In this document: positions 4,112-58,993 of the stretch, one piece after another | Layout: each line of letters opens with the position of its first letter | How positions within the stretch are numbered: the stretch's first letter is position 1 | Source of the DNA: Botryllus schlosseri | Lineage: Eukaryota | Length of the DNA: 64,000 nucleotides | NCBI GenBank assembly: GCA_051294905.1 | Contig: CM119371.1 | Location: 11,720,001 to 11,784,000, forward strand | Direction: 5' to 3' | The notes under the pieces: model-generated | The model's input: the letters and a program-made list of their open reading frames with translations, nothing else | Database searches by the model: none | What the model was told of the DNA's origin: nothing | Made by a program: the position numbers and the translations under genes

Positions 4112-6139
4112 GAGTGTAATTCTACATTGGCCACTCCAGCAAGTTCATTACTTTTATTGCTGCAGTTGGAATAACCGATTCGCGCATGTGCTAGGTCGAT
4201 TCGTTCACCGTATGTGCAGAAGTATTTCTATTCATAAAATATACACATTATAATGGGAGGGTATTTGAAGCTAACATGGTTATGGCACTGTCATCATCGT
4301 ATGTCCTGGAGTTGAACCAAAAGTAGAATCAGTCAATCTATAAACAGATCACGGTTCACAGACTCAAATCTCCACCCTGTTTCAAGAATCAGGACAACCG
4401 GATATTTTTCGCTTTAATTATGGTAGAGAACCAATTAAAATGTCCATTTAACCAATTCTGGGGCCAAGGAATTCAATAAAACCAACTGTTTCGCCCTAAA
4501 CTCAATGAAAAAAATGTTACGGATGAAAATAAAAATGGGGGGACGGGCTTGAAAATGTCTGTAGGATACGACCTACACAAAAAAAATTCTTGTGAAATGT
4601 TCTTTTAAGGAGTATGGTTGATAAAAAGCTTGATTTTAAATATCACATTTATTCCACAGTGAAATATGCATCACATAAAGATTTCATGGTCCCAACCCAT
4701 ATCCCTGCTCACCGTAAATACTATTATCACCAGTCATATATATGAAAATTTATTAGAAATGGTTTCGAAATTTTTCAAGTAGAATCCGTGCAGAACCACC
4801 GCTTCAATAATAATAGCAAAAATATTTACAATTGGTCTTGACATGTGGCAAGTCGACGATCCAAAATGCATGCCAAACACGAAACAAGAAATACGTTCGG
4901 ATTTTTGACTTTTGACAATGCTAAGAGACAAAATGCATTTTCTCGTTTGTTCCATGTCACATTCCAGGTGTCATGAAATGAGAAAATACTTTTTTTTTAT
5001 CTTTGCCTTATCTTCTGGATAAATTGTGTATTTGAGGGCGGATCGTCGTGCAGTGTTTGTAGAGTCCTTTAGTTGAGGTTGCTGGATCTCACAAAGAATG
5101 TGCTGAAAGTGGACCCAGCAATTGTCCTCTCTTGGTGGCCATACAAATAATTCTTCTGTGGTATCAGACATGTGAAGGAAATTTACAAGAGTATCTTTTG
5201 ACTCCGTATTAATTTCCATAATCAATTGTTACTATGTCTTTTGTTACTTGCTTCTATTATTGTTGAAGCGTTGGTTCCGCACGGATTCTACTTGAAAAAT
5301 TGCGGAAACTAAATAGAATAAATTTATTGATATATATGACTGGTGATAATAGTATTTACGGCGAGCAGGGATATGGGTTGGGACCATGAAATTTTTATGT
5401 AAGGCATATTTCACGGTGGAATAACAGTGAAATTTAAAATCAAGCTTTTTATAAACCATACTCCTTAAAAGCACATTTCACAAGAATTGTTTTTGTGTAG
5501 GCCGTATCCTACAGACATTTTCAAGCCCGTCCCCCCCCCCATTTTTTTTCATTGAGTTTAGGGCGAAACAGTTGGTTTTATTGAATTCCTTGGCCCCAGA
5601 ATTGGTTAATTGGACATTTTAATTGGTTCTCTACCATCATTTGAGCGAAAAATATCGATTTCAAAGATTTTTGAAAGTAGCGCCACCTAGTGACGAGAGG
5701 ATTTTAAATCGCAATATCTTTTGAACCGCTGAACATTTTTCAATTTTTTTTTAAATAAACTTGAAATTCAAAAAAGAACAACATTTGTAAATATTGGACA
5801 ATTCTGAGGGTATGCATTACAGCCCCTGTTGAATTATAATGGAATTAGCCGAGTGTAATTCTACATTGGCCACTCCAGCAAGTTCATTACTTTTATTGCT
5901 GCAGTTGGAATAACCGATTCGCGCATGTGCTAGGTCGATTCGTTCACCGTATGTGCAGAAGTATTTCTATTCATAAAATATACACATTATAATGGGAGGG
6001 TATTTGAAGCTAACATGGTTATGGCACTGTCATCATCGTATGTCCTGGAGTTGAACCAAAAGTAGAATCAGTCAATCTATAAACAGATCACGGTTCACAG
6101 ACTCAAATCTCCACCCTGTTTCAAGAATCAGGACAACCG
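2663..6139 (+). repeat. Near-identical tandem duplication, unit ~1,738 bp (2663-4400 and 4401-6139)
   Basis: Both units start GATATTTTTCGCTTTAATTATGG and end CAGGACAACCG. ORFs 3234-3488 and 4971-5225 translate identically. Differences are a few SNPs and homopolymer lengths. Confidence 0.95.
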
Positions 6140-6366
6140 ACTTTCATCCCTAGTTTTGAAAATTCGTTATTGAGGTAGACCAGCTTAGGAAATCTCGCCA
6201 ACGTTTCTGACGAGCGTAAGATGTCTTCAAATCAATGGTTGGTTGGTTTTGAATGAACATATATATAATTTTCATATCCTCACTATATAATCAAATACCA
6301 ATATTGCGTTTTGGTTTATAATCCCAAATTCATGTAGTGCGGCCCGCGAATGGATTAAGATGTTAA

Positions 6367-6854
6367 AGGGGCACTGCGCTCTAAAAATGATGTGGTCTCA
6401 AATTGAAGGTAAAAACGAACAAAATTTTTTGGCCCCAGCCATTTCCTTCAGAACGCCACCGTAATGGAGCTGCATGCAATTTATTGAAATTTTTACAAGA
6501 CCAGCTGCCGCGGCTGCTTAACCCGTTACATGGCACGATGTCTTCATCGTCGCACTTGCTCGACGCAGTCACGCTGAGAACGAAACTTAGACACATTTCC
6601 TTCATAACATCGGCTGACAACTATCTAAAATTCGTTCTCTGCGTGACTGTCTATAATCGCGTCGAGCAAATGTGACGGTGAAGACATCGTGCCATGTAAC
6701 GGGTTAAGCAGCCGCGGCAGCTGGTCTTGTAGAAATTTCAATAAATTGCAGCTCCATTACGGTGGCGTTCTGAAGGAAATGGCCGCGGCCAAAACTTTTT
6801 GTTCGTTTTTACCTTCAATTTGATACCACATCATTTTTACAGCGCAGTGCCCCT
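6367..6854. mobile_element. Palindromic MITE with TTAA TSD (Kolobok-like)
   Basis: TTAA|AGGGGCACTGCGCT...AGCGCAGTGCCCCT|TTAA. Inverted arms ~180 bp. Purine-purine termini plus TTAA fit Kolobok. Confidence 0.8.
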
Positions 6855-7067
6855 TTAAGCTATACATTGATACTGTGGAGGTAGTCTTAAACTGACAACT
6901 CACTTAAACACACAGAGTTGGCTAGAAAATGGGCAGCCATAAGCAATACAATTGATAGGACTGTGTTGGTATATTGAAATTGACGAGAATAATAGCAAAC
7001 AGTGTAACTGTGAGTACTCCATGGCAATCTGTAGTTATTGGTAAGTATCTTCCATTGACAAGCCAAG

Positions 7068-7142
7068 ATCCGATGCCGATGTGATAGTCGATATGTAGGT
7101 GGCACGTCTCAGCGCTTGCAGCAAAGAATTCGCCAGCATATC
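7068..7142 (+). pseudogene. Penelope-like element, 5' part of the GIY-YIG endonuclease (5'-truncated), interrupted by the giant palindrome
   Basis: Reads IRCRCDSRYVGGTSQRLQQRIRQHI up to the CATATC TSD and continues in frame at 22577. Confidence 0.85.
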
Positions 7143-9549
7143 AGTAGTGAGGGTACCTGAAATCGGTACGCACCAATCAGAGAAGGCCACGTCGCCTTAA
7201 TTGCCACGCCTACATTGTCACATCATCCGCCCCTTGCCGCACCTATAGCACACCTATTGCCACATCATCCATCCATTGCTATATCATCGCTGCATTGATT
7301 GCCGCATCTTGATACTTTTCTCAGATATTGTATTATGTGTATTTAGGACTAATATCATCCGTCCATATTTTTTTAACTTGATTTTATGTGTACAAGTTAC
7401 GGTTTCTGCAGTTTCCACATTTTACGACTTATGATTGCTGCGTCAAAACTTACCTTGGCTAGAATCGACAGATTTTCTATTATGTGTATTTAGGACTATG
7501 TATTTAAATTCCTATTCAGATTATACATAAATGCGAAAACTATGATGTCTATGTAAGGTTATATTCTCCGGATAATATTATTAATATCAAAATTCTACAC
7601 ATCATCACTAATTACTTAATATAAAATGCGATTTTGAGCGCTGCGACTTGATAATATGAACCCCTACGCTTCTGATGCATGATTTTTTGTGATAAGGACC
7701 TAGGTAACATTCAGAGTCTGCAACGATTGTTTGGATATACATTATAGCAATACCCCACTAAACTATAGGCGGTTATATTACTCTATTGGTCAGAGATAAC
7801 TCATCCGTCCATATTTTTAAACTTGATTTTATGTATACAAGTTACTGTCTCTGCAGCCTCCACATTTTACGACTTATTTTCATTAGACGCAGGCAAGCGA
7901 TTCTCCAGTTCGGAGCTACGGAAACAAATCACTCGCATGTGCGCGTTCCGAATAGTCTTGTAGAATTTTCTAAAGTCGGAACAGCTTAGTAGCATATACG
8001 CGAATCCCAAGGTGAAAATAATCGAACGAACTATAGCCGTAGGCGTGCGATTCGCAAGGCTTTATTTATACAAACTCTATCGATGCCTGTACGCGAACCC
8101 CAGCGTTAAAACGATTAGGTCTAATTAACACGTTCTGAAGCCGAAAATTTAGTCAACATCATTGAGATAGCCATGATTTGAAGATGGTGATCGAGTGTGA
8201 CAATAGCACTCGCCAAGGTTAGACAAACATAACCTTAAACTACTCTCTACTTCACAAAATATAAAGTTATAAAAGTAAGCAGATTTCTATGAAAACCCGT
8301 GAAATAGAAGTAAAAGTAGCCTAGAAACATAACTACTTAATGAAAAATCGTGATTCTTGAAGTGACCACATTTCATACGATTCAGTCCTTTTCATGTCAC
8401 TAGAATAAGGTGATTAAACTGACAGTGAAACGCCGCCGGCGTCTTATAACGTAATAATGTAAGCTGCGCCGGGTGCTGCTATAATGTTAGGAGCGAATAT
8501 AGTAGAAAGTTCACGTCTGGACATCTGTAAGTAGGTGCGCATACTACCGTAGTAAAACGCATAACAGAATTCACGCAAAAGTCGATATTGCTTTGTGATG
8601 CTTTTGATGTTGTTCCATACCGATTGGGAAGATAGGACTCCTAATTTCCTAACTAACTACATAATCCCTAGTAACGTAGTCAGACGCATAACGGAATTTA
8701 CGCAAAATCGGTATTGCTCTGCGATAATTTGACCACTATGTTTTGATAATAACTTGCTTCCGAGAAATAAATAACATTCATTATACGTTAGATGATACTT
8801 TTCCTTGATATTCTATTATGTGTATTTAGGGCTAATGCGACATCACTATATTGGCGACAGGCCTGATTTGAACACACTAATTTTGCGAATTAAACTTATC
8901 CCCCAACACGGACACTCAATGAAGAGCACCCCGGAGACCCGCATAAATGCTCCACAATTCTCGACATATAATATACTGAGCATATAATAAGCTAACAAAA
9001 CCTATACTTGAGTACTCCGAAATGTACAAGTACTTTAACTTTACACGACGTTTTTGTAAAATGAATACTAATTTTAATGGAAAATAAAAATTATGTACTC
9101 AAGTAGGTTTTTGTCTACACGCACCAACTACTCAAGTGTTTATGACACAGGAATGATTCATTAAGTATACCACAAGCAGGCCAAACATAATTTAATGGAT
9201 TTATCTGAGATCATTGAGAAGAAGCGTTTCAGAGTCGAACCAAGCACCTTATCGAGCTACCTTGCTCATGGTCGACTGCTACCGGACGCATAGGCTACTC
9301 GGAAAACTACGAATACAATGCGTACCGCACTTTGCAAATTGTTTCGATTTATTCTAGCCGTTTTAATTTAAGGAAGCCCATTTCACTCAATGTATCGATG
9401 CCTACAGTATAGAGTAGGCCTATACTCTACAAAATTTTCTGATTAATTCTTCCTACGTTAATTTACCATAAGAAAGACAATTTGACTCCTAAAGTCCGAA
9501 ATTTTGGGGAGGGGGCCGACGGTCAGTAAATCATTTCGAAGTGCAAGTA

Positions 9550-10098
9550 CAGGAATATCATTATGTCCTACAACTGTGTACTAACGTTCAAGGTGAGAAT
9601 TTAATGTTTAGCATGCTAATTCTGTTATTGAAATTGACTATGTATGGGTATATGCTATGTTCACGAAAATCAGATATGCCTAAAAGTCAGTATTCGACTG
9701 CGATAGTTTCAAAGGTGTTCCATCATTAGATGTGTGATGAAATTTAGCATGGTGCATTGTCATAAGGCTCTACAACTACGTATCAAGTTTAGAGTTGGTA
9801 TTCAATGTTAAGCATGGTAATTCCGTTATTAAAGTCGGCTATGTATGGGTACGTGCTATACGCTCCCACAAACAGATGTACGCAAAAAGCCGATGTAGAG
9901 TCGCGTTAGTTTTAAAGTTGTTCCATCATGAAATGTGTGATGGGATTTGGTATGGTGCATTTTTATAATGTCCTATAACCGCGTACCAACTTTCAAGGTG
10001 GGAATTCAATGTTTAACACGCTAATTCTGCTATTGAAATTGACTATGTATAGGTATATGCTATGTTCACGCAAAACAGATATGCGTAAAAGTCGGTAA
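9550..10098 (+). repeat. Array of ~200-bp diverged tandem units (~2.7 copies); mirror copy at ~19615-20163
   Basis: CTATGTAT recurs at ~9638, 9839 and 10043, and TGTGTGATG at ~9731 and 9933. Confidence 0.85.
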
Positions 10099-10207
10099 CC
10101 CTGTGTTCTCGATTTCTAACTAAAATAGTTACTGAGTAGAATTTGCAATCACTTTCATCTCGCTAAATAACTCTCGCATAGCCCTATCGCTCGAAATATA
10201 TCACCAA

Positions 10208-11042
10208 TCACCTGTTCAGAGCAATAAACACATTTCCACAATGATTTTTTATATTCGTAATATGCGATAATACATCATTAATTATACGAATCATTACCAT
10301 TTGCGTAGAGTAAACATCAAATTCATCTGCTCTCGGCGCTAATTTGGGGAACGAAATTGGTACAATTTGCATATTACCCTTAACGTCGAATTCATTCAGT
10401 TTCACGTTTAATTTCCGGATAAATTCGTTCACAATCAATCATAGTTTCATTCACTTTTATGAGGACATTTCGCTTGCTGTTATATGGTGAAATTAAGTGG
10501 AATTTCACATGACACCCAATAGTTCTACAGTTCCCACGAATCTGGAAAATTGGTAATCGCTCAACGAAACCATTATATTCAACGTCTTCGAAGAAGAACG
10601 AGCAGCAACTCTTATACATCAGTAGCTTCCTACATAAAATACCCTCCCATCTCAAACAATTTTTCGAATGAAATGAGTTCAGCATTACGCTCCACTCTTC
10701 TCTGGTGAGCTCAGATCGGTAGTAGACAGAAACTATATCAGTTTCATCTACAAGACTTGTTGATATTCCATGAAACACCGCCATTCCCATGAGAATTTGA
10801 ATCTCATAACGCACAAGGAATCGCTTGAGAAATTTGATATCATCTTCTCTACGCTTCTTCGAGAGTGAATTTGAATACGGACGATAGTCAGATAATATAT
10901 TTCGCCAGGTATTCGGATCAGCTAGATTCTCATCTTCATGTCTTAATAGAAGCTCCACCATATTCTGTACAGTTAATTGTCTTTTCACCCGCTGAGCCAT
11001 TTTTCTGATACGATACGATACATAACGAAAAACATTCACCAT
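10208..11042 (-). pseudogene. Frameshifted ~276-aa ORF, left-arm copy; unknown function, possibly NOF-like N-terminal domain
   Basis: ORFs 10392-11042 and 10208-10438 join if a 4-nt GATT duplication is removed. It mirrors 18671-19505. Confidence 0.6.
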
Positions 11043-12154
11043 AATATATATTCTGAATATATTTTTTTCTAACCATCCTCGAGGAAATCCACAACTATTT
11101 CCAGAACCCTCCCAATAAATGTATGTCTAATTCTTTGCGAGGACTAAGATTTCACCTAAATAGAGATCAATCATTCTTACGATGTCGAAAAAACTAAACA
11201 GATAAACAAAAAACTCTACCAACATTAAATCAGAATACTCTTACCACCTATCAAGGATAATATAGCTCCGCGAAGACAACTGAACCTTTCGTTAACCTTA
11301 TGTAGCTAATTACAACCTCATTGAGAATAGCTAATTCGCGATAACACTAACCATAGCGACGTTCCAAAGCGTCATGTTTATATTGGATTCTCGCTAATAC
11401 CCCAACAGCTGATAAAGTTAGATAGAGGCTACTAGCTTTAGTTTTTCCTAAACGAAAACTCATAGATACTCAAGTAGAAGACGCACCCATAAATTTATAC
11501 TCGAGTGCAAGTGGAAGTCGTGATTCTCAAGTAAGCAAAATGTAAGTATTCATGAGTTGGTTTAAATGAAGATTGTCAAGTATAAGTAGCATAAACATCA
11601 TATTTGTAGTAGCATGTCCTCAAGATATTTTCAGTTAGGTCTAATTTCACGCTGCTTACCATCCGTACATGCACTTTGGATTCACATTCTTTTCAAGGGA
11701 TAAGCCACACATACGAGAAAAGGCACGCAGTTGAAAAATTCATGATTTCGTCCGAGTTTGTATTTTAGTAATATATACTAATTTACGATACCGCGTTTGT
11801 AACTTAATTTTAGGTCAAATTTGATTCGATTACGGGCATTATAGCGACAGAGATTTACGATACTGTAAAATGACCTACCTTATGACATCAAATTTCGTCT
11901 TCTCTCCAAGTGAAAATATCATGTTCTATAATATTGTCCATACCGAACAAATATAAATTTGCCTGTGCTGTTGCTTTGCAAGAATACTTCGCTCACATAG
12001 TAACCAATTTCTGGTGGATTCCGAATCGATATAGACAGAAATGTGGAAAGTTACATTGGCATGTCTTAACTTCTACCAATATGTAGGCCTACCTACCTAT
12101 AATCTTATCAGGCCGTAGCGCTCACGCAAAGCATTATCAACTAAAGGAAAACAG

Positions 12155-12820
12155 ACTTTTGCGTAAATCTGTTTTTCGATAGCGTAGCACGTACCTATAC
12201 ATAGTAAGCTTCAATAACGGAAGTACCATGCTTATAATCAAATCCCCACCCTGAAACTTGGTACGCATGTAGTTGTAGGACATAATGAATATACACCAAA
12301 CCAAATTTCATCAGACATTTCATGATGCAACACCTTTAAAACCAACGCAGTTCTATACCGAATTTTGACTAAATCTATTTGTCCGTAGCGTAGCACGTAG
12401 CTATACAGTATACATAGTCAACTTTAATAACGAAATTACCATGTTGATAATCGACTCCCCACCTTGAAACTCGGTACGCAGTTGTAACACAATGCACCAT
12501 GTCAAATTCGGTTACGCATTTCATGATTGAACAACTTTAAAACTAGCGCAGTTCGACACCGACTTTTGCGGGAGAGTAGCATGTACCTATGCATAATCAA
12601 CTTTAATAACGAAATGACCATGCTATACATTGAATGCGCAACTAGAAAATTGGTTCACAGGTGTAGGACATTATGACAATGGAACATATCAAATTTCATC
12701 ACACATTTCATGATGGAACACCTTTAAAACTAACGCAGTTCTATACCGATTTCACGTGAATCTGTTAGCGGGAGCGTAGCACGTACCTATGCGTAGTTAA
12801 CTTTTATGACGGAATTACAG
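12155..12820 (-). repeat. Second array of the same ~200-bp unit (~3.3 copies), inverted relative to 9550-10098; mirror copy at ~16893-17558
   Basis: TAGCA(C/T)GTA recurs at ~12185, 12391, 12577 and 12777, and TTTCATGAT at ~12318, 12519 and 12706. These are reverse complements of the 9550-10098 unit. Confidence 0.85.
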
Positions 12821-14833
12821 ATGTAATTAAGTTTCAACACTTTTACAATGATTCGTCTTGCTTCCTATAACATCCCACTCGAAGCCCTCGTTATTAGGCT
12901 ATGATCTCAGCCTGAGCTATGTCTTGAAGCCTACGGGAATCTGCAAATTGTTTCGATTTATTCTGTCAGTTTCAATTTAAGATAAGGGAACCCATTTCAC
13001 TCAATGTATCGATGCCTACGGTACTCTACAAAATTTTCTGATTAATTCTCCCTATGTTAATTTATCATAAGAAAGGTGATTTGAATCCTAAAGTACGAAA
13101 TACTTGTTCGCTTGAGCTGAGCCGCAGCGCTTGGAGTGGAATTTTACGAGGTATGTGGACTCATTTCGAAGGGCTCTATGCCATAGGAGCATACTTTACG
13201 CTCCAATTCGACTCCCATACATTCCATATAGTTACTAACAGAACCATTGAGTACCAGCCTGGAAATTTCGCGTAGCACTAGATGGTATGTATACAATTTC
13301 ATGACATCCGACAGTACGACGGAGACTATCAAAATATCGACAGAAGCCCTCTATTCTTTTCTGAAATAATCAAGGTTTTATCAGGACTTCCCTTCATATA
13401 AATTCCAGCAGAATCACTAATAACCTCTCAAGTTTACTCAATTTACTCTAATTTGACACTCGAGTTCTTAATCCCTATTTTCCGCAAGTATGATACAGGC
13501 TATCGCTCGATACTCAACGATTCGTAATTTTGCTGGAATACAAGTACAATTAGGGATTAAAAAGTAGCTAATATAGGTGGTTATGTTTGTAGATTATTTA
13601 CACTTCTATACTTGGCGGTTTTTCAGGAGAAACTACCTACTTTTAGGACTTTATATTTTAAAGTAGCTTTAGGTTACGTTTGTATCACTTTGACAAGTGC
13701 TATCATCAAAACTGCTTTTGCTAAACTCTTACACTTTCAGTAAACTTCTACACTGAATCTTGTAAAGTAGATAGAAGAGGAAAACTACTATCATAAGGTA
13801 CGTGAGAAGCACGCAAATTTTGATCGCATACAAATGCCACAAACCGCGCTGACTTTCAGAGTTGTTAAGTATAGAAGTACTCGTACTTCTTGAGAATACC
13901 CAAGTAGCTTTTTTGCCTAAATGCACCAAATACTCTCAAGTCCTTATTGGAGTACATCAACTTCATGATAGCTACAGTATAAAACAGAAATAGACCTAGA
14001 GTACTAACGTTTTACTTACTCGGAAATGACTGCTTCTACCTTATTTTAAAGGATTCCTCGCTCGGAGCGAAATTTTATGGGGTTTTGGATAATATCCAAG
14101 ATGTAGGGTCACTTTGAAGGGTACTTCGTAAAACTTAAATATTGCGCAGTGAGAGTTCGCAAATTTTCGAAGTATTTTTGTTATTTTTATTGCGATAAGT
14201 CATTCTGCGCCGCGAAAATGCGTCGTCGGATATAGAGGAAACTAGCAGCACTCATCAGGACCACTGAAAACAGTACATTTCAACATTTAGTAGCAGTAAA
14301 TTTCTAGTAAAGTACAAGAAGTGATGATTTCCGAGCGAGTTAAAAAGTAAGTATTGAAGGTATTGTTCGCTCGAAAACCGTAAAACTCTGAAATAGAAGT
14401 AGATGCAGTGTAGATAGTTAATCACTTCATTCAGTATAGCGCAATCAGGTCAAACCTATACTTGAGTACTCCAAAGTGTACAAGTACTTCGCTATGTACT
14501 CCCTCCACGTAAAAAGTGACTAGAGTTTAGAGTACTTTATCGATACTTGACAGTTTCAGTTTTAGATAAAATTCAGTAAGACTTTAAATTTTAAAGTAGT
14601 TTGAGCTTACGTTTGTATCACCTTGACAAGTAACATTATCAGACATGAAAATGATATTATAACCTAATACAGAAGTTAACACACGTCAATGTGCTTCGGA
14701 ATTCACGAGAAATTGCTTACTAAGAGGAGTATATTCTTGTATACACAATAGTGGAGAGAATCTTTAAAATGTAGTAAGCAGGCCGATGGGTATTCGTTGA
14801 GTTGTATAAGCATAAAAAAACATTCCCGCGCGC

Positions 14834-14879
14834 TCCTAAACCTAACACTTCCTAAGCCACCACCACCTAATACTAAGAC
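14834..14879. other. 46-nt non-palindromic centre (spacer) of the giant palindrome
   Basis: TCCTAAACCTAACACTTCCTAAGCCACCACCACCTAATACTAAGAC, bounded by CATTCCCGCGCGC and GCGCGCGGGAATG. Confidence 0.95.
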
Positions 14880-17800
14880 GCGCGCGGGAATGTTTTTTTA
14901 TGCTTATACAACTCAACGAATACCCATCGGCCTGCTTACTACATTTTAAAGATTCTCTCCACTATTGTGTATACAAGAATATACTCCTCTTAGTAAGCAA
15001 TTTCTCGTGAATTCCGAAGCACATTGACGTGTGTTAACTTCTGTATTAGGTTATAATATCATTTTCATGTCTGATAATGTTACTTGTCAAGGTTATACAA
15101 ACGTAAGCTCAAACTACTTTAAAATTTAAAGTCTTACTGAATTTTATCTAAAACTGAAACTGTCAAGTATCGATAAAGTACTCTAAACTCTAGTCACTTT
15201 TTACGTGGAGGGAGTACATAGCGAAGTACTTGTACACTTTGGAGTACTCAAGTATAGGTTTGACCTGATTGCGCTATACTGAATGAAGTGATTAACTATC
15301 TACACTGCATCTACTTCTATTTCAGAGTTTTACGGTTTTCGAGCGAACAATACCTTCAATACTTACTTTTTAACTCGCTCGGAAATCATCACTTCTTGTA
15401 CTTTACTAGAAATTTACTGCTACTAAATGTTGAAATGTACTGTTTTCAGTGGTCCTGATGAGTGCTGCTAGTTTCCTCTATATCCGACGACGCATTTTCG
15501 CGGCGCAGAATGACTTATCGCAATAAAAATAACAAAAATACTTCGAAAATTTGCGAACTCTCACTGCGCAATATTTAAGTTTTACGAAGTACCCTTCAAA
15601 GTGACCCTACATCTTGGATATTATCCAAAACCCCATAAAATTTCGCTCCGAGCGAGGAATCCTTTAAAATAAGGTAGAAGCAGTCATTTCCGAGTAAGTA
15701 AAACGTTAGTACTCTAGGTCTATTTCTGTTTTATACTGTAGCTATCATGAAGTTGATGTACTCCAATAAGGACTTGAGAGTATTTGGTGCATTTAGGCAA
15801 AAAAGCTACTTGGGTATTCTCAAGAAGTACGAGTACTTCTATACTTAACAACTCTGAAAGTCAGCGCGGTTTGTGGCATTTGTATGCGATCAAAATTTGC
15901 GTGCTTCTCACGTACCTTATGATAGTAGTTTTCCTCTTCTATCTACTTTACAAGATTCAGTGTAGAAGTTTACTGAAAGTGTAAGAGTTTAGCAAAAGCA
16001 GTTTTGATGATAGCACTTGTCAAAGTGATACAAACGTAACCTAAAGCTACTTTAAAATATAAAGTCCTAAAAGTAGGTAGTTTCTCCTGAAAAACCGCCA
16101 AGTATAGAAGTGTAAATAATCTACAAACATAACCACCTATATTAGCTACTTTTTAATCCCTAATTGTACTTGTATTCCAGCAAAATTACGAATCGTTGAG
16201 TATCGAGCGATAGCCTGTATCATACTTGCGGAAAATAGGGATTAAGAACTCGAGTGTCAAATTAGAGTAAATTGAGTAAACTTGAGAGGTTATTAGTGAT
16301 TCTGCTGGAATTTATATGAAGGGAAGTCCTGATAAAACCTTGATTATTTCAGAAAAGAATAGAGGGCTTCTGTCGATATTTTGATAGTCTCCGTCGTACT
16401 GTCGGATGTCATGAAATTGTATACATACCATCTAGTGCTACGCGAAATTTCCAGGCTGGTACTCAATGGTTCTGTTAGTAACTATATGGAATGTATGGGA
16501 GTCGAATTGGAGCGTAAAGTATGCTCCTATGGCATAGAGCCCTTCGAAATGAGTCCACATACCTCGTAAAATTCCACTCCAAGCGCTGCGGCTCAGCTCA
16601 AGCGAACAAGTATTTCGTACTTTAGGATTCAAATCACCTTTCTTATGATAAATTAACATAGGGAGAATTAATCAGAAAATTTTGTAGAGTACCGTAGGCA
16701 TCGATACATTGAGTGAAATGGGTTCCCTTATCTTAAATTGAAACTGACAGAATAAATCGAAACAATTTGCAGATTCCCGTAGGCTTCAAGACATAGCTCA
16801 GGCTGAGATCATAGCCTAATAACGAGGGCTTCGAGTGGGATGTTATAGGAAGCAAGACGAATCATTGTAAAAGTGTTGAAACTTAATTACATCTGTAATT
16901 CCGTCATTAAAGTTGACTACGCATAGGTACGTGCTACGCTCCCGCTAACAGATTCACGTGAAATCGGTATAGAACTGCGTTAGTTTTAAAGGTGTTCCAT
17001 CATGAAATGTGTGATGAAATTTGATATGTTCCATTGTCATAATGTCCTACACCTGTGAACCAATTTTCTAGTTGCGCATTCAATGTATAGCATGGTCATT
17101 TCGTTATTAAAGTTGATTATGCATAGGTACACGCTACTCTCCCGCAAAAGTCGGTGTCGAACTGCGCTAGTTTTAAAGTTGTTCAATCATGAAATGCGTA
17201 ACCGAATTTGACATGGTGCATTGTGTTACAACTGCGTACCGAGTTTCAAGGTGGGGAGTCGATTATCAACATGGTAATTTCGTTATTAAAGTTGACTATG
17301 TATACTGTATAGCTACGTGCTACGCTACGGACAAATAGATTTAGTCAAAAGTCGGTATAGAACTGCGTTGGTTTTAAAGGTGTTGCATCATGAAATGTCT
17401 GATGAAATTTGGTATGGTGTATATTCATTATGTCCTACAACTACATGCGTACCAAGTTTCAGGGTGGGGATTTGATTATAAGCATGGTACTTCCGTTATT
17501 GAAGCTTACTATGTATAGGTACGTGCTACGCTATCGAAAAACAGATTTACGCAAAAGTCTGTTTTCCTTTAGTTGATAATGCTTTGCGTGAGCGCTACGG
17601 CCTGATAAGATTATAGGTAGGTAGGCCTACATATTGGTAGAAGTTAAGACATGCCAATGTAACTTTCCACATTTCTGTCTATATCGATTCGGAATCCACC
17701 AGAAATTGGTTACTATGTGAGCGAAGTATTCTTGCAAAGCAACAGCACAGGCAAATTTATATTTGTTCGGTATGGACAATATTATAGAACATGATATTTT

Positions 17801-18670
17801 CACTTGGAGAGAAGACGAAATTTGATGTCATAAGGTAGGTCATTTTACAGTATCGTAAATCTCTGTCGCTATAATGCCCGTAATCGAATCAAATTTGACC
17901 TAAAATTAAGTTACAAACGCGGTATCGTAAATTAGTATATATTACTAAAATACAAACTCGGACGAAATCATGAATTTTTCAACTGCGTGCCTTTTCTCGT
18001 ATGTGTGGCTTATCCCTTGAAAAGAATGTGAATCCAAAGTGCATGTACGGATGGTAAGCAGCGTGAAATTAGACCTAACTGAAAATATCTTGAGGACATG
18101 CTACTACAAATATGATGTTTATGCTACTTATACTTGACAATCTTCATTTAAACCAACTCATGAATACTTACATTTTGCTTACTTGAGAATCACGACTTCC
18201 ACTTGCACTCGAGTATAAATTTATGGGTGCGTCTTCTACTTGAGTATCTATGAGTTTTCGTTTAGGAAAAACTAAAGCTAGTAGCCTCTATCTAACTTTA
18301 TCAGCTGTTGGGGTATTAGCGAGAATCCAATATAAACATGACGCTTTGGAACGTCGCTATGGTTAGTGTTATCGCGAATTAGCTATTCTCAATGAGGTTG
18401 TAATTAGCTACATAAGGTTAACGAAAGGTTCAGTTGTCTTCGCGGAGCTATATTATCCTTGATAGGTGGTAAGAGTATTCTGATTTAATGTTGGTAGAGT
18501 TTTTTGTTTATCTGTTTAGTTTTTTCGACATCGTAAGAATGATTGATCTCTATTTAGGTGAAATCTTAGTCCTCGCAAAGAATTAGACATACATTTATTG
18601 GGAGGGTTCTGGAAATAGTTGTGGATTGCCTCGAGGATGGTTAGAAAAAAATATATTCAGAATATATATT

Positions 18671-19505
18671 ATGGTGAATGTTTTTCGTTATGTATCGTAT
18701 CGTATCAGAAAAATGGCTCAGCGGGTGAAAAGACAATTAACTGTACAGAATATGGTGGAGCTTCTATTAAGACATGAAGATGAGAATCTAGCTGATCCGA
18801 ATACCTGGCGAAATATATTATCTGACTATCGTCCGTATTCAAATTCACTCTCGAAGAAGCGTAGAGAAGATGATATCAAATTTCTCAAGCGATTCCTTGT
18901 GCGTTATGAGATTCAAATTCTCATGGGAATGGCGGTGTTTCATGGAATATCAACAAGTCTTGTAGATGAAACTGATATAGTTTCTGTCTACTACCGATCT
19001 GAGCTCACCAGAGAAGAGTGGAGCGTAATGCTGAACTCATTTCATTCGAAAAATTGTTTGAGATGGGAGGGTATTTTATGTAGGAAGCTACTGATGTATA
19101 AGAGTTGCTGCTCGTTCTTCTTCGAAGACGTTGAATATAATGGTTTCGTTGAGCGATTACCAATTTTCCAGATTCGTGGGAACTGTAGAACTATTGGGTG
19201 TCATGTGAAATTCCACTTAATTTCACCATATAACAGCAAGCGAAATGTCCTCATAAAAGTGAATGAAACTATGATTGATTGTGAACGAATTTATCCGGAA
19301 ATTAAACGTGAAACTGAATGAATTCGACGTTAAGGGTAATATGCAAATTGTACCAATTTCGTTCCCCAAATTAGCGCCGAGAGCAGATGAATTTGATGTT
19401 TACTCTACGCAAATGGTAATGATTCGTATAATTAATGATGTATTATCGCATATTACGAATATAAAAAATCATTGTGGAAATGTGTTTATTGCTCTGAACA
19501 GGTGA
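18671..19505 (+). pseudogene. Frameshifted ~276-aa ORF, right-arm copy
   Basis: ATG at 18671. In ATGATTGATTGTGAAC at ~19271, deleting one GATT gives ...VNETMIVNEFIRKLNVK... through to the stop at 19505. Confidence 0.6.
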
Positions 19506-22500
19506 TTGGTGATATATTTCGAGCGATAGGGCTATGCGAGAGTTATTTAGCGAGATGAAAGTGATTGCAAATTCTACTCAGTAACTATTTTAGTTAGAAA
19601 TCGAGAACACAGGGTTACCGACTTTTACGCATATCTGTTTTGCGTGAACATAGCATATACCTATACATAGTCAATTTCAATAGCAGAATTAGCGTGTTAA
19701 ACATTGAATTCCCACCTTGAAAGTTGGTACGCGGTTATAGGACATTATAAAAATGCACCATACCAAATCCCATCACACATTTCATGATGGAACAACTTTA
19801 AAACTAACGCGACTCTACATCGGCTTTTTGCGTACATCTGTTTGTGGGAGCGTATAGCACGTACCCATACATAGCCGACTTTAATAACGGAATTACCATG
19901 CTTAACATTGAATACCAACTCTAAACTTGATACGTAGTTGTAGAGCCTTATGACAATGCACCATGCTAAATTTCATCACACATCTAATGATGGAACACCT
20001 TTGAAACTATCGCAGTCGAATACTGACTTTTAGGCATATCTGATTTTCGTGAACATAGCATATACCCATACATAGTCAATTTCAATAACAGAATTAGCAT
20101 GCTAAACATTAAATTCTCATCTTGAACGTTAGTACACAGTTGTAGGACATAATGATATTCCTGTACTTGCACTTCGAAATGATTTACTGACCGTCGGCCC
20201 CCTCCCCAAAATTTCGGGCTTTAGGAGTCAAATTGTCTTTCTTATGGTAAATTAACGTAGGGAGAATTAATCAGAATATTTTGTAGAGTATAGGCCTACT
20301 CTATACTGTAGGCATCGATACATTGAGTGAAATGGGCTTCCTTAAATTAAAACGGCTAGAATAAATCGAAACAATTTGCAAAGTGCGGTACGCATTGTAT
20401 TCGTAGTTTTCCGAGTAGCCTATGCGTCCGGTAGCAGTCGACCATGAGCAAGGTAGCTCGATAAGGTGCTTGGTTCGACTCTGAAACGCTTCTTCTCAAT
20501 GATCTCAGATAAATCCATTAAATTATGTTTGGCCTGCTTGTGGTATACTTAATGAATCATTCCTGTGTCATAAACACTTGAGTAGTTGGTGCGTGTAGAC
20601 AAAAACCTACTTGAGTACATAATTTTTATTTTCCATTAAAATTAGTATTCATTTTACAAAAACGTCGTGTAAAGTTAAAGTACTTGTACATTTCGGAGTA
20701 CTCAAGTATAGGTTTTGTTAGCTTATTATATGCTCAGTATATTATATGTCGAGAGTTGTGGAGCATTTATGCGGGTCTCCGGGGTGGTCTTCATTGAGTG
20801 TCCGTGTTGGGGGATAAGTTTAATTCGCAAAATTAGTGTGTTCAAATCAGGCCTGTCGCCAATATAGTGATGTCGCATTAGCCCTAAATACACATAATAG
20901 AATATCAAGGAAAAGTATCATCTAACGTATAATGAATGTTATTTATTTCTCGGAAGCAAGTTATTATCAAAACATAGTGGTCAAATTATCGCAGAGCAAT
21001 ACCGATTTTGCGTAAATTCCGTTATGCGTCTGACTACGTTACTAGGGATTATGTAGTTAGTTAGGAAATTAGGAGTCCTATCTTCCCAATCGGTATGGAA
21101 CAACATCAAAAGCATCACAAAGCAATATCGACTTTTGCGTGAATTCTGTTATGCGTTTTACTACGGTAGTATGCGCACCTACTTACAGATGTCCAGACGT
21201 GAACTTTCTACTATATTCGCTCCTAACATTATAGCAGCACCCGACGCAGCTTACATTATTACGTTATAAGACGCCGGCGGCGTTTCACTGTCAGTTTAAT
21301 CACCTTATTCTAGTGACATGAAAAGGACTGAATCGTATGAAATGTGGTCACTTCAAGAATCACGATTTTTCATTAAGTAGTTATGTTTCTAGGCTACTTT
21401 TACTTCTATTTCACGGGTTTTCATAGAAATCTGCTTACTTTTATAACTTTATATTTTGTGAAGTAGAGAGTAGTTTAAGGTTATGTTTGTCTAACCTTGG
21501 CGAGTGCTATTGTCACACTCGATCACCATCTTCAAATCATGGCTATCTCAATGATGTTGACTAAATTTTCGGCTTCAGAACGTGTTAATTAGACCTAATC
21601 GTTTTAACGCTGGGGTTCGCGTACAGGCATCGATAGAGTTTGTATAAATAAAGCCTTGCGAATCGCACGCCTACGGCTATAGTTCGTTCGATTATTTTCA
21701 CCTTGGGATTCGCGTATATGCTACTAAGCTGTTCCGACTTTAGAAAATTCTACAAGACTATTCGGAACGCGCACATGCGAGTGATTTGTTTCCGTAGCTC
21801 CGAACTGGAGAATCGCTTGCCTGCGTCTAATGAAAATAAGTCGTAAAATGTGGAGGCTGCAGAGACAGTAACTTGTATACATAAAATCAAGTTTAAAAAT
21901 ATGGACGGATGAGTTATCTCTGACCAATAGAGTAATATAACCGCCTATAGTTTAGTGGGGTATTGCTATAATGTATATCCAAACAATCGTTGCAGACTCT
22001 GAATGTTACCTAGGTCCTTATCACAAAAAATCATGCATCAGAAGCGTAGGGGTTCATATTATCAAGTCGCAGCGCTCAAAATCGCATTTTATATTAAGTA
22101 ATTAGTGATGATGTGTAGAATTTTGATATTAATAATATTATCCGGAGAATATAACCTTACATAGACATCATAGTTTTCGCATTTATGTATAATCTGAATA
22201 GGAATTTAAATACATAGTCCTAAATACACATAATAGAAAATCTGTCGATTCTAGCCAAGGTAAGTTTTGACGCAGCAATCATAAGTCGTAAAATGTGGAA
22301 ACTGCAGAAACCGTAACTTGTACACATAAAATCAAGTTAAAAAAATATGGACGGATGATATTAGTCCTAAATACACATAATACAATATCTGAGAAAAGTA
22401 TCAAGATGCGGCAATCAATGCAGCGATGATATAGCAATGGATGGATGATGTGGCAATAGGTGTGCTATAGGTGCGGCAAGGGGCGGATGATGTGACAATG

Positions 22501-22570
22501 TAGGCGTGGCAATTAAGGCGACGTGGCCTTCTCTGATTGGTGCGTACCGATTTCAGGTACCCTCACTACT

Positions 22571-23230
22571 CATATCCCACGGCAGATTAGAATAACTAAT
22601 GTTTCTCCAACGCCTTCATTGCAGTCTGTTGACACACTGCGTGATTATGATCAAGTTACTGCTTGTAATTTGGCTATTGGACAGCATCTCTTATCCCATC
22701 CAGAATGTGCTGATCATTACAATGACAGTCAACTTTCTAGTGGCCGTTCTCTTTTTCATTTAAAGGTCCTGGAATCTACGATCATAAAACTACGAAAGCC
22801 AATTCTCTGTCGCCAGAAGGAACGCCTCTACACTCTCGGAATATTTATATATGGAATATTTATGCGTTGTGTTTTCGGTTATTTATAACCGAATATGTAG
22901 GCTACTCGTTAACGTTTGTTTTGTACCGTTACTATACCGTATCTTGCCCGTCTACTAGTTGTTTGTTGTTGGTTTTTATTACGTCATAGACACAAAATGG
23001 TTCTTAAATTTCGAATTTGATCCACCCTATCACTGACGTTCGCTACTAATGAGGGTCAGTCGAAAATCTTTTAGCAAATAAATTAACAATATGAAGTTAT
23101 TGTTTCGCGTTCTTCTTTTTACGTTACTTTCTCTTTTACGCCTGATGAAGGAGCAGCGCTCCGAAAGCTCGTGTAACTAATAAAGTTATATTCATTCGCA
23201 AGTGGACGTTAAATAGAGTGTGAAAGCTAC
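22571..23230 (+). mobile_element. Penelope-like element, 3' part (rest of GIY-YIG domain plus 3' UTR/pseudo-LTR)
   Basis: HIPRQIR...AIGQHLLSHPECADHY...RSLFHLKVLESTIIKLRKPILCRQKE matches the typical PLE endonuclease C-terminus. It is followed by a hammerhead motif and AATAAA (23179). Confidence 0.8.
23136..23176 (+). ncRNA. Minimal type I hammerhead ribozyme (Penelope-associated)
   Basis: TTACGC-CTGATGA-A-GGAGC(AGC)GCTCC-GAAA-GC-TC-GTGTAA: intact CUGAUGA and GAAA core boxes, 5-bp stem II, stem I TTACGC/GTGTAA, and palindromic AGCT in place of stem III. Confidence 0.85.
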
Positions 23231-24366: not shown

Positions 24367-25253
24367 TCAGTGAATCTTCTTCAGCTTCGCACCAAAAAGT
24401 TCTTCAAGAAATTTCACTTTCGATCTATCGGAAGGATACTCCTTAAATGATATACTGAAATCCTGCAAAGATAAAAATCACAATCGACCCAACTCCATTT
24501 TGAGGCAAAACAAACCTCGATGTTGAAGCGACCTTGATTCCATTCCTGGTATTGCCCTCCTTTACGAATCGAGATATTGATGGCGTCATCGTCCTTGTTT
24601 TTCAAATCGCCGGCATCCAGCTCGACTTTCTGAACATTGTGTCAGCTTAAAACCATCGTGACGCCATATCACACAGGCATTGATTATTATTGATCGCGTG
24701 TTCGGCTCTATATTCGGTTAAATGCGTTGAATGTGACTGACCTTCCAATGCAGGTTTCCAGACCACGATTCAATCCGAGGATGTCCGAGAAACGAACGGA
24801 GCGTGCGACCTGAGATGTTGTTGTTGTTGCGGCGCAAATTCACTTCCTCCACCTGAAACCGCTTTGTTGATCCACTGTGGAGGTATAACGCAACAAAACT
24901 ACTCACGTGGACTGGCTCCTTGAGACATCTCGCGATGACGGCCAACATCTCGTCGTCGATCTGGCAGTAGCGTAAATCCAACTCCCTAAGTCCCTGACTC
25001 CTCGCTACGAGCGTTCCAACGACATGAGCTTGATCGCGGCTCAATGGGGTACGAAATACATCGATGTCGTCAACGTGTTTCATGAGATCGACGTCGTCTG
25101 ATTCGTAGATCGTCATGTAAAGTTCCAGGCGAATAAGCCGCGTGAGTGTGTGCTCTTCGGGTGTCATGTATATGTATCGCTCTGTATGCATCTTCTTCAG
25201 CTGCGAGTGGATCGATCGAGCGAGGACTTTCCGCTTCATTGTTTGAGACGACA
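24367..25253 (-). CDS. NLR-type gene, 3' exons (helical/LRR-like region): 25253-24907, 24852-24742, 24629-24516, 24462-24367
   Basis: LRELDLRYCQIDDEML and VEEVNLRRN are RI-like LRR motifs. GT-AG introns of 54, 112 and 53 nt keep the frame to TGA at 24367-24369. The phase-1 acceptor at 25254-25255 matches the phase-1 donor of the NACHT exon. Confidence 0.75.
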
Positions 25254-25437
25254 CTGTGACGAGACGCACGGTGATAGACGGTCTCTACGCTGCACGCGTC
25301 ACAATGAGAGACATTCACACACTTGGGCGTCAGAACCTCGTCCTGGCGATCCATTGTTTACAGTGGATACAAGCAAACATCGTCTTCGTTTGTTGACATG
25401 TGGCATAAAGGTAGTTATGTAAGACATTCATTTATAC

Positions 25438-34105: not shown

Positions 34106-35165
34106 AAGCTGAAGTGCACAGCCCGAGCGTGTGATTGAGATATACGTTGAATATATCCAATCTAAATTGTACTGATCGAAGTACAATTACTGTGATATGT
34201 AACGGCCACATTGTATATATCGGTGGCCACGGACTGTTGTTGGAAGTTGGATAGCCTCTCTGACTTGACTGGTGTATTGCACTTGATAACGATGCCTACT
34301 GAGATGTATTTTATTGTGTATTCTAGTTCTTTTTCTAGGCTAGGCTTAGTTAGATTTTTAGGCTACATATTTCTTGTATGTTAATCTGGATTGTAGTGTT
34401 GTATTGGATAACAATTTTCTAGTTAGATTAATCTGGAATTCTGTTGTGTGTTTTGTTAGGCTAACTTGTATATTATAAAAGCTGCTAGAAAACCTTGTTC
34501 ATGCTCTCTAATGTTGTTGTATTATTGACTGAAGAGTTTGATTCCATTACTAGGATTGTCTTAGCTATGTAATTGCTGTTGTCTTCCCATATACTTGTGA
34601 TTGTTCACTTCCCCTGTCATTTACATGGCAGTTTCCTCCTTTTTTTTTTTGGGGGGGGGGGGTCGATGTATAGCTGTGGTATCGGAAATCAGTGTATTGT
34701 CTCACCCTATTAGCATACGAATATGACTTCCTATTGCAATTATCTCGAGTATTTATAAGCTCGTGTAAGAGCTGAGTCGGGATGAGACTTATTTGCTAAA
34801 CCTACTAGTACCAACGTCTGAAATATATCCGTATGTCTTGCGTCTATCTGCGTCTAAGAAGATCTCACCAGGTTACAGGATTCCAGTTAAGTAGTCAGCC
34901 AGCTAAACCTATAATATTTTGCTGTCAGATTTCTCGCCCAATTCCGGTCTTTCGACATATTTATGGTCATTGATCTTTTAGGCCTGGATGCTATTCATTA
35001 TTAGATTCATTGACTCCTGAAATGCCGACTTGGAGCAAGGCCCACAAAAATTTTGCCCACTTTCAATAAAGAAGGCCTACGTTAACTGAATAGCCTAGCT
35101 CTAAAAATTGGCGTTGAGTTATAGAGTCAACATCATCAAATTTAGTTGGATGTGTAATATCTAAC

Positions 35166-36560
35166 CTCTGTAAACATCATTTTGAGATTTCGAGAAGACG
35201 ACGCCAGCCACGAATCTTCGTACGACGGACCATCGCTCTTCATGGAGATGTTCTTCGTCGAAGCGAGCGAATTCGTTGAACTCCATTTCTGCTACGAAGA
35301 TCGCTGCCAGATATTCTTGAATGCTTTGATGGCAAAAGAAGAATGTGAAGTCTCCTTGCATCAAATACCGACTCAGAAGATTGTTCCCAGGAACTTTCGT
35401 CATCAAATCTTGTACTTCCTTCGCGGAAACTCCAAATAAATTCAAGTCCATCTCTTTGAATACGACCCGTCCTTCTTTCATACCACGAAATGCCAATTCC
35501 TTTAGTTTGTTGACGATCGATAAAATTTCTTCCCGGTTTCGAATATTTTCGAGACTTTGTAGAGCTGAGATGATTCTGTTGTATAATTCTGTTACCGTTG
35601 CTGGGACAGGTTTACTTGAATCCCTCCCCATCACAACTGCCGTTAAAATCAGAAAAACGGGAACCGAAACTAAATTGAGCAATCTTGGTGACACAGTTTC
35701 AATTTTCTCCCAGAGCACTTCTCCTTCCTCTTTGAGTAAAAAGGCGAACAGCCTATGCGCATCTTCCAGAGTAAAACCATGGAGCATAACGATGGTTTCG
35801 GGTCTAGCCGGTGCCGGTAACTCTGAAATCTTGAACTCGCGTGATGCGATATATATTTTGACACGAGGGAGAATATTGCGGGAGAGAATGTTATACATGA
35901 TTGTCCATAAGCTGGCTTTGTCATACTTTCTTATTTTGCAGGTATTTCTCTCCTCCAAGTTCCACGTTGCTTGATCAAGCCCGTCAAATATCAATATTGC
36001 CTCCGATTGGTGTTCATATAGCCAGTCGTAAGCCAAATCTTCTTCTTCTTCGCTTCGGTACAGCCCTCGAAATATAAATCTTGATGGTTTGGTTTCGTTC
36101 ATTTCTGGATTATCCTTCAAATCAATATGATGCACCAACTTTTTACCGTAAGATGAGATATCTTCGGCATCATCTGTTGCAGATATACCGAGAGCTTGTC
36201 TAGCTATTCTGCGTATGAGGGTGGATTTTCCCGATCCAGCAGATGCGACAATAGCGGTTACACCAACATTTTTTGACGAGCTCGCCGTTTCCCTCTGCCA
36301 CATGGATGCCTCTAAGTCACCGATCTTGATATCTTTCGCTTCAATTCTTTTCTGCGTCAGAAATCCAATTTCCTGTGTCAGCTGATCATGGCCATATCGA
36401 CCTTTGTAATAATCGTGCACGTCAACTTGTCGCATTTGCGGGTAAACTTCAAAGTCAGGTTTCTGAAGCTCTTCATGTCGAAAGTCATCGAGGATGTCAA
36501 TATTGGTCGCTGCCTTTGTATGGTCGTTGCAAATTTGTATGAGCTTTTCGATACTGATCT
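35166..36560 (-). CDS. NLR-type gene, large NACHT NTPase exon
   Basis: Walker A ASAGSGKST, Walker B AILIFDGLDQ, sensor-1 IYIASR, VPVFL motif and winged-helix FCHQSIQEYLAA. Acceptor TTTTCAG at 36561-36567 and donor GTTAG at 35161-35165. Confidence 0.93.
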
Positions 36561-58488: not shown

Positions 58489-58993
58489 CCGTATCACGTA
58501 AGTATGGCAATATCTGTGAATAAACTTTTTACGAAGTACGAACCCAGATAAACTTCATTATAAGACGGCCCGAAGACTATGATTGTAATGAAACAATGTC
58601 AGCTAAATAGTAAACAAGCGTCCCAAATACGCCAGACATTGATCATTGTTCAGGCCACATTGTGACGAAAACATGAATTACGGATGGATGGATAACCATG
58701 CTGGAGCCTGGATTACTACCAATTTAGTTTTATTTTCGATGAGGCATGCTGAACTGAACAGCTAGAAGCAGGTGATGAGACGACGGCTTCCGTTGTGGCA
58801 CAGCAGGATTGATCGATAGATGTGTTAAGGCGGTGTTAATATTTATTAAAGAAAGCTTTTAGATGCGCCGCCCATAGTGATTTTGTCGTCCATGGTGAAT
58901 TGCTTTAGGTCTATACGGAAACTAACTTATATTGTATTAGGCTATGTGACAGCGGTAGTATTGTTATATAGTAGGCTACACTAACAGTAAATA

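Follow-up and report, generated by a model that had tools for sequence, protein, structure and literature searches.

How does a palindrome of more than 15 kb that carries no recognisable Polinton gene come to lie, cleanly inserted and with two nearly identical halves, in an animal chromosome? The question is raised by a 64,000-nucleotide stretch of the Botryllus schlosseri genome (assembly GCA_051294905.1, contig CM119371.1, positions 11,720,001 to 11,784,000 of the forward strand), which we refer to as the window and whose own numbering is used throughout. Between positions 7143 and 22570 it holds a palindromic, non-autonomous element of 15,428 bp, delimited here by exact comparison of its arms. 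Taken jointly, our findings are probably best explained by a genuine, recent insertion of one member of a large family of gene-less palindromic satellites of Polintons (Mavericks), which is integrated in trans and copied by way of a fold-back step.

Architecture of the window element

The two arms of the element are 7,691 nt each and are held apart by a spacer of 46 nt, the inverted repeat making up 99.7% of the element's length. Left and right arm differ by 14 substitutions in 7,691 positions and by no insertion or deletion (99.82% identity), and the initial annotation, which had seen a perfect foldback, was therefore right about the inverted repeat, its arm length and its spacer but not about its perfection. 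The value of 100% given by an inverted-repeat finder (arms 7138-14833 and 14880-22575, 46 nt apart) reflects rounding. The 14 differences are clustered, with seven in 8469-9593, five in 12299-12805 and none in the first 1.3 kb, and some of them, those in high-copy stretches, may be assembly errors. In agreement with the AGTAGT originally noticed at both ends, the element starts with AGTAGTG and ends with CACTACT, and its 32-nt terminus has exactly two sites in the window as opposed to none in 100 shuffles. No tandem repeats were found within window positions 6000-15000. The parts of the element and of its immediate surroundings are as follows (ORF, open reading frame; TSD, target-site duplication; TIR, terminal inverted repeat).

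7074-7142 (+): left part of the interrupted repeat (GIY-YIG-like ORF, putative Penelope-like element); homology to paralogues begins at 7074
7137-7142 (no strand): left TSD copy, CATATC; the hexamer is single in the empty-site paralogue L048
7143-22570 (no strand): whole palindromic element, 15,428 bp
7143-14833 (+): left arm, 7,691 nt
7143-7149 (+): terminal AGTAGTG with the (AGT)2 Maverick end motif, as named in the available part of PMC8097293; mirrored at 22564-22570
7150-7172 (+): hypervariable subterminal box, element bases 8-30; mirrored at 22541-22563
7173-7287 (+): segment homologous to the ~140-bp TIR of an autonomous Polinton (arm bases 31-145, 89%); mirrored at 22426-22540
Opening of the segment 7173-7287 (+): conserved box CCAATC...GGCCACGTCGCC
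10392-11126 (-): ORF P0001, 244 aa; mirrored at 18587-19321 (+)
14814-14833 (+): A-run and G+C clamp (…CATTCCCGCGCGC) closing the hairpin stem; mirrored at 14880-14899
14834-14879 (+): non-palindromic spacer or hairpin loop, 46 nt
14880-22570 (-): right arm, the reverse complement of the left arm except for 14 substitutions
22571-22576 (no strand): right TSD copy, CATATC
22577-22888 (+): right part of the interrupted repeat with its ORF; 91-92% identical to at least 40 paralogues

Insertion into a repeated reading frame

The hexamer CATATC flanks the element on either side (7137-7142 and 22571-22576), and removal of one copy restores a plus-strand frame that reads ...RCRCDSRYVGGTSQRLQQRIRQHI followed directly by PRQIR... 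across the insertion, in phase. The repeat thus interrupted has at least 40 paralogues that are 91-92% identical, some of them in tandem at a spacing of 2,778 bp. One paralogue, L048, is uninterrupted at the site and has the hexamer once (...CGCCAG CATGTC CCACGG...). Because L048 serves as an empty-site control, we conclude that the insertion was precise and accompanied by a 6-bp duplication. Both copies of the duplication reported initially were thus located, with a single hexamer in the empty site, and duplication, termini and empty-site paralogue agree with the proposal that the element integrated as a unit.

The interrupted copy of the repeat appears to be 5'-truncated, judging by paralogue homology that starts only at 7074. 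It had been taken for a Penelope ORF that rejoins in frame. The rejoining is borne out; the Penelope identity goes back to a GIY-YIG profile match in the paralogue ORF that falls below the Pfam cut-off (E 6e-4, 20.5 versus 22.6 bits), and Pfam gave no GIY-YIG match in the window's own right-flank ORF. Going by this weak match, the flank would fit a Penelope-like element, in which such an endonuclease domain follows a reverse transcriptase. Just left of the insertion, the window also has a separate 112-nt inverted repeat (95%; 6363-6474 and 6747-6858, 272 nt apart).

A genomic family of palindromes

When the first 500 bp of the element were compared with its own 495.5-Mb genome and the best 40 of 1,057 first-look candidates were scored, at least 40 strong matches were obtained, which resolve into 17 plus/minus pairs 8.6-20.9 kb apart and six singles. 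Here, as for the matches to the long ORF, the recurrences of the inner arm and the integrase matches described below, the best candidates were scored and the counts are lower bounds. Twelve sister copies were read, comprising nine pairs in whole, the small pair C14a, the single C5 and most of the pair C15, and the inverted architecture is present in all twelve. Nine of them are near-complete palindromes whose arm segments are 98.6-100% identical. C14a has 3.25-kb arms flanking a non-palindromic middle of 2.2 kb, in C5 the palindrome is truncated on one side, and C15 is made up of one long arm, the centre and a second arm of 1.3 kb.

Among the palindromic elements with both ends, 10 of 11 have perfect 6-bp duplications (C12 matches at five of six positions), all of them different. 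AGTAGT was seen at 25 of 25 ends, and at four further ends, across the elements examined. Between copies, the terminal 1.1-2 kb are shared at 97-99% and the centre at ~90%; alignment of the interior is patchy. The pattern of the centre (see below) occurs at 223 genomic sites (control, 0). In keeping with the initial suggestion of palindromic relatives that differ in their 6-bp TSDs and can be traced through their spacer, both the relatives and the recurrent centre were recovered. We conclude that the window element belongs to a propagating family of gene-less palindromes with more than 200 members. In viral contigs, neither the terminus nor the centre motif had a match.

The copies are kin and not independent of each other, which has to be borne in mind when their lengths are compared: 10 of the 17 pairs span 14.7-16.6 kb as opposed to 17.0-19.0 kb for autonomous elements. 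These lengths are a weak argument for the packaging constraint that was suggested initially. A copy of 20.9 kb (C3:4207939-4228871, L025-L027) is nested: an arm is followed by a first centre motif, a return arm of 1.65 kb, a forward arm of 3.9 kb, a second centre motif and a return arm, as if it were the outcome of two strand switches or a head-to-tail dimer with an internal deletion. Elsewhere, the innermost 2.5 kb of the arm are met again, often as inverted pairs with gaps from ~0.3 kb to several kb. One palindromic inner-arm copy stands at the very start of contig C7 (G000:C7:1-7053); such palindromes may break contigs.

Autonomous Polintons with the same terminus

Are there elements that could supply what the palindromes lack? 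A 24-nt subterminal box (element bases 31-54) has 148 forward and 148 reverse sites in the genome (control, 0), and 10 of the box pairs listed enclose a 62-64% match to an ORF of ~1,290 aa. Nine of these 10 pairs span 17.0-19.0 kb between boxes, the other one 34 kb, and nine of the 10, plus one further pair, have an integrase (rve) homologue (64-74% identity, frames of ~339-352 aa). Genome-wide, there are at least 144 integrase matches, most of them free of stop codons in the matched segment.

A Pox_A32 match led to a Polinton at C11:4.50-4.52 Mb (L044/L045), which has an rve plus chromo integrase (E 1.5e-12) and a Pox_A32 packaging-type ATPase (E 1e-9), the ATPase being found in this related C11 element only. 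With a 383-aa piece of the C11 long ORF, at least 107 genomic matches were obtained that fall into identity groups of 90-100%, ~57-64% and 33-37%; apparently, the genome holds several abundant, young Polinton lineages with at least three polymerase identity groups. Pfam DNA_pol_B_2 is found in five of nine full-length relatives of the long ORF and C2H2 fingers in four of these five, and because its relatives carry DNA_pol_B_2 we read the ~1,290-aa ORF as a polymerase of the protein-primed type. Pieces of the long ORF itself gave only weak matches to Pfam, PHROGs and PDB sequences (Pox_F12L, E 0.0024; endonuclease-like, E 0.002-0.03), and neither Pfam nor PHROGs recognised a capsid protein or a protease in the Polinton ORFs searched.

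In one cognate autonomous copy, the two 3-kb ends comprise an inverted repeat of ~140 bp (97.9%), AGTAGTG termini and the duplication CAAAGA. Its end matches the window arm in bases 31-145 only, at 89%. An autonomous Polinton or Maverick is by definition one with polymerase and integrase (PMC5499653, in its available part); the window element has neither, the partner elements have both. With its TSD, its ends, its TIR and the termini it shares with these partners, the window element is a non-autonomous Polinton/Maverick derivative.

The initial annotation thus holds in describing a non-autonomous element with Polinton/Maverick ends (shared box, AGTAGT, 6-bp TSD, neither polymerase nor integrase), and the autonomous Polinton with the same terminus that it anticipated exists in the form of the gene-bearing 17-19-kb elements with the common box. 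Of the outcomes it had named as fatal, those open to testing, namely that no Polinton shares the terminal sequence or that all relatives are non-palindromic, were not what we found. A single Polinton end copied back on itself, as it had proposed, is not recognisable in the arm, of which only ~145 bp are Polinton-like and in the rest of which no gene remnants were found, as judged against 6 kb of one cognate copy and the proteins of a related Polinton. We also considered the arm as a former Polinton interior and rejected this, given a match limited to bases 31-145 and no remnants of helper proteins in these comparisons.

Coding content and cargo

The longest frame of the arm, P0001 (244 aa), lies in its low-copy part. 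It matched no Pfam family and no Atlas entry at 0.9 or above (best 0.83), none of 41 candidates from a protein search passed, and we regard it as an orphan, or else as a frame open by chance; a 98% match to it is found at a second locus (C2:29911007). No polymerase or integrase ORF, nor any remnant of one, was found in the arms. When 70 ORFs of at least 70 aa from Polinton loci were compared by tblastn with 11 copies of the palindrome, matches were confined to frames overlying the inverted repeat and a handful of small fragments, and no transposase ORF was found in any of the 12 copies. Within these searches, ORF scan, Pfam and tblastn agree with the earlier statement that the arms hold no Polinton genes.

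Some relatives do carry genes of other kinds. A Bcl-2-family ORF is present in both arms of the C8 palindrome (L034:6190-6783 on the plus and 9339-9932 on the minus strand, E 2e-21), the autonomous copy has a BIR/IAP-domain ORF close to its left end (L046:1015-1647, minus strand, E 2e-18) and the C11 Polinton has a caspase-domain ORF (L045:8795-9565, plus strand, E 4e-13). Apoptosis-related cargo hence recurs among Polintons and palindromic relatives, and varies from element to element.

A hypervariable box next to the terminus

The 23 nt that separate the conserved CCAATC box from the invariant AGTAGT (7150-7172 and 22541-22563) behave quite differently from their surroundings. Comparison of loci L003-L020, L036, L037, L043, L046 and L047 gave 14 distinct terminal 30-mers among 15 elements, and mean pairwise identity is 44.6% at bases 8-30 as opposed to 90.6% at bases 31-130. 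The sister copies C25 and C11 illustrate how sharp the boundary is: they are 99.24% identical over 9,467 nt from exactly base 31, and their boxes differ throughout. Within an element, by contrast, the same box is found at both ends in 12 of 12 cases, the autonomous one included. Candidate sources of box diversity are error-prone priming, template switching among co-replicating elements and diversifying selection on origin recognition.

The centre as a candidate turn-around signal

The centre of the palindromes has the form A-run, CATTCCCGCGCGC, loop of ~40-46 nt, GCGCGCGGGAATG, T-run, and is conserved in all sister copies that have one, unlike much of the interior. Where the lists of centres and ends overlap, centres lie midway between paired ends (C1:17092160/17107359, C3:15376480/15391891, C2:34292018/34305091), and they are missing from box pairs that enclose Polinton genes, save for one 34-kb pair holding a centre. 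Folded with DNA parameters, the centre forms a single uninterrupted stem with an unstructured loop. The loop consists of degenerate TTAGG(G)/CCTAA units, and its four TTAGG in 46 nt were reached in two of 200,000 shuffles. The host telomere repeat is TTAGGG, an array of which lies within ~4 kb of the end of contig C1. This likeness suggests that the ancestral turn-around may have arisen at a telomere-healed or telomere-like DNA end. As a turn-around signal, the G+C-clamped centre with its telomere-like loop is a concrete candidate.

Arm symmetry and how it may be renewed

Over the terminal 1.1 kb, arms within one copy are 99.73-100% identical (11 elements), whereas 220 comparisons between copies gave a median of 98.4% (97.15-99.82%). 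Near the centre, copies are ~10% apart while their own arms agree, and kilobase differences between copies, such as 1.39-kb duplications and the Bcl-2 gene, are mirrored in both arms. Since the centre is shared by all copies, the palindrome must predate their divergence. Had the arms been handed down as plain duplex, their divergence would be no smaller than that among the copies; it is smaller, and it follows that something re-symmetrises them. This points to symmetry that is renewed, beyond being merely inherited, and favours, if only indirectly, the snap-back copying that was proposed initially.

How might such renewal work? We envisage that the integrase of a Polinton inserts the palindrome in trans by acting on the shared ends, a step we regard as highly probable, and that the Polinton polymerase copies the element from its terminal origins through a fold-back hairpin intermediate, on which our judgement is evenly balanced. 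During such copying, the displaced single strand would fold at the conserved, G+C-clamped centre into a hairpin of ~7.7 kb with a 46-nt loop, and this hairpin would present a duplex origin again. Copy-back synthesis or repair of the stem could then keep the arms alike across generations, and the 14 arm differences in the window would be changes since insertion. Going further, and only tentatively since we are inclined to doubt it, the palindromes may be the integrated duplex of a Polinton satellite with a hairpin genome, i.e. a half-genome of 7-8 kb with one protein-primed origin, one closed end and a loop that is a telomere relic, rebuilt to perfection in each replication cycle. Were this true, they would be the first natural read-out of strand-displacement replication of animal Polintons through single-stranded intermediates, and the 23-nt box would be the place at which competing helpers and satellites diversify in their origin recognition or priming.

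A number of points weigh against this account. Asymmetric copies exist (C15, C14a, C8, C7b, C4), and they show that symmetry is not enforced after insertion. The shared ends show compatibility with the integrase, which falls short of mobilisation itself. Our reading of the long ORF as a polymerase depends on how Pfam labels its relatives, and a genome search with the Pfam DNA_pol_B_2 model returned nine candidates of which none scored, a null that we ascribe to insensitivity since relatives of the long ORF carry the family. The cognate helper was read at the two 3-kb ends of a single copy, and homology to helper interiors is excluded only as far as the proteins of a 62-65%-identical relative and, for DNA, these 6 kb reach. 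Finally, the four sequence runs compared consist of short contigs, and neither a junction nor an arm nor the centre is spanned by any of them; in run X1, a contig of 515 nt is identical to the low-copy interior 10273-10787, but X1 and X4 may be the assembled sample, and stretches left uncovered by X2 and X3 carry no weight.

Moreover, arm identity could result from arm-to-arm gene conversion in the chromosome. In this scenario, Polinton-dependent palindromes would move as duplex and have their arms homogenised in place, as in large sex-chromosome palindromes, and no fold-back step would be needed. Close inverted repeats with a short spacer, which is what the window element amounts to, are classic substrates for intrachromosomal conversion; the clustering of the 14 arm differences could reflect patchy conversion, and asymmetric copies persist. 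Mirrored kilobase duplications, the captured Bcl-2 gene and the different interiors are, however, less well explained in this way. Also, the ends of the autonomous copy are matched, hypervariable box included, across 17 kb, over which local conversion is unlikely, and the centre is better conserved than much of the interior, as expected for a cis-acting turn-around signal. On balance, we consider conversion without fold-back an unlikely source of the symmetry, though the most serious competitor of fold-back copying.

Other origins of the palindrome

Could the Polinton-like ends be there by chance, on a member of another fold-back superfamily similar to FB/Galileo of Drosophila or on some other family with 6-bp TSDs? 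Very long inverted repeats are indeed the hallmark of fold-back elements, and only ~145 bp are common to the palindromes and Polintons. These include, however, the AGTAGT end and the 24-nt box exactly as in polymerase- and integrase-bearing elements, and an arm without tandem subrepeats, a duplication of 6 bp and 12 copies in which no transposase ORF was found do not suit a fold-back transposon, leaving chance resemblance very improbable.

Slightly less credible still is an assembly artefact, in which a genuine Polinton-type insertion would have been mis-joined or assembled from a chimeric long read that folds back on itself. Perfect inverted repeats of great length pose difficulties to assemblers, and no read has been shown to span this one. 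Yet the sequence to the right of the element is not a reverse-complemented version of that to its left, and the flanks join as continuous paralogous sequence with a single hexamer, while the 14 differences imply that the arms were resolved as two sequences. The same architecture is seen at many loci with duplications of their own, with the centre at 223 sites, and the TTAGGG array close to the end of C1 indicates an assembly of high quality. A one-off local inverted duplication of a single insertion, lastly, is refuted by the many independent palindromic insertions with their own duplications and a common centre.

Other features of the window

Apart from the palindrome, the window contains an ORF with a NACHT domain (24718-25284, minus strand, E 7e-14) and a weak match to the NOD2 winged helix, which together with a weak leucine-rich-repeat ORF (35161-36591, minus strand) makes up a gene neighbourhood of the NLR type. 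Further along lie remains of other transposons, namely a DDE_1 fragment (54765-55415, plus strand, E 2e-4) and, at 58991-60618 on the plus strand (E 9e-12), a hAT transposase including the C-terminal dimerisation domain.

Significance and comparison with known systems

The replication mode of Polintons and Mavericks has been deduced from their gene content and, to our knowledge, lacks experimental demonstration. It is in this respect that the palindromic family may show how Polintons copy DNA. Satellites that keep ~145 bp of each helper end would define minimal cis-requirements for integration and probably for replication, and renewed arm symmetry may be taken as indirect evidence for a single-stranded fold-back stage. 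For the host, more than 200 closely spaced inverted repeats of 5-10 kb are potential fragile sites and potential sources of hairpin RNA.

Intact vertebrate Mavericks are 12.7-24.6 kb long and have the (AGT)2 end motif, perfect 6-bp duplications and inverted repeats of 46-1,447 bp, according to the available part of PMC8097293. The window element resembles them in its (AGT)2 ends, its 6-bp TSD, its possession of TIRs and a length within the same range, and departs from them with a repeat of 7,691 nt, no core gene and homology to an autonomous element over ~145 bp. No description of palindromic or fold-back Polinton derivatives was found in the full-text literature, a search that had Repbase, subscription journals and supplementary files outside its scope, and the accessible portions of PMC5499653, PMC6431247 and PMC11414722 make no mention of them. 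Standard transposon annotation, which expects short inverted repeats around genes, would miss or misclassify such palindromes.

The Drosophila transposons FB and Galileo likewise have very long TIRs, little unique middle and frequent internal rearrangement. In FB, however, the arms are tandem subrepeats and the duplications are longer than 6 bp, whereas the window element is free of tandem repeats in 6000-15000, has a 6-bp duplication and ends like a Polinton. The palindromic rDNA of Tetrahymena offers a parallel of another sort, in that a hairpin-capped palindrome forms at a short inverted repeat. Together with palindromes from origin-dependent inverted-repeat amplification (preprint 10.1101/2023.07.03.547456), it shares with our family a short non-palindromic centre between strong short inverted repeats and the ability of one arm to regenerate the whole. 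Such palindromes are products of the amplification of chromosomal segments, unlike the window family, which consists of transposons with target-site duplications.

Close likenesses are also seen to snap-back or copy-back defective viral genomes, which, in the available text of PMC13506859, combine near-complete self-complementarity with a short non-complementary turn and no coding capacity. They further have two identical origins and need the replication machinery of a helper, a dependence that for our family is deduced. Unlike them, the palindromes are chromosomal, heritable and multi-copy, possess a conserved turn-around and are known here only in integrated form. Their arms, ends excepted, are also not recognisable helper sequence, as judged against 6 kb of the cognate copy and related proteins. 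The same likenesses and differences apply to adenovirus defective genomes with large inverted repeats, reportedly the subject of a 1978 paper by Daniell and Mullenbach.

Finally, the rolling hairpin of parvoviruses and AAV (PMC11575299, in its accessible part) features a hairpin turn-around and duplex dimers of inverted symmetry as intermediates, both of which have counterparts in the scheme envisaged above. Parvoviruses rely on a nicking Rep protein and short terminal hairpins; what we propose here is a protein-primed origin and a hairpin that would be the whole genome. With these likenesses and differences side by side, the window element can best be classed as a novel structural form of non-autonomous Polinton.

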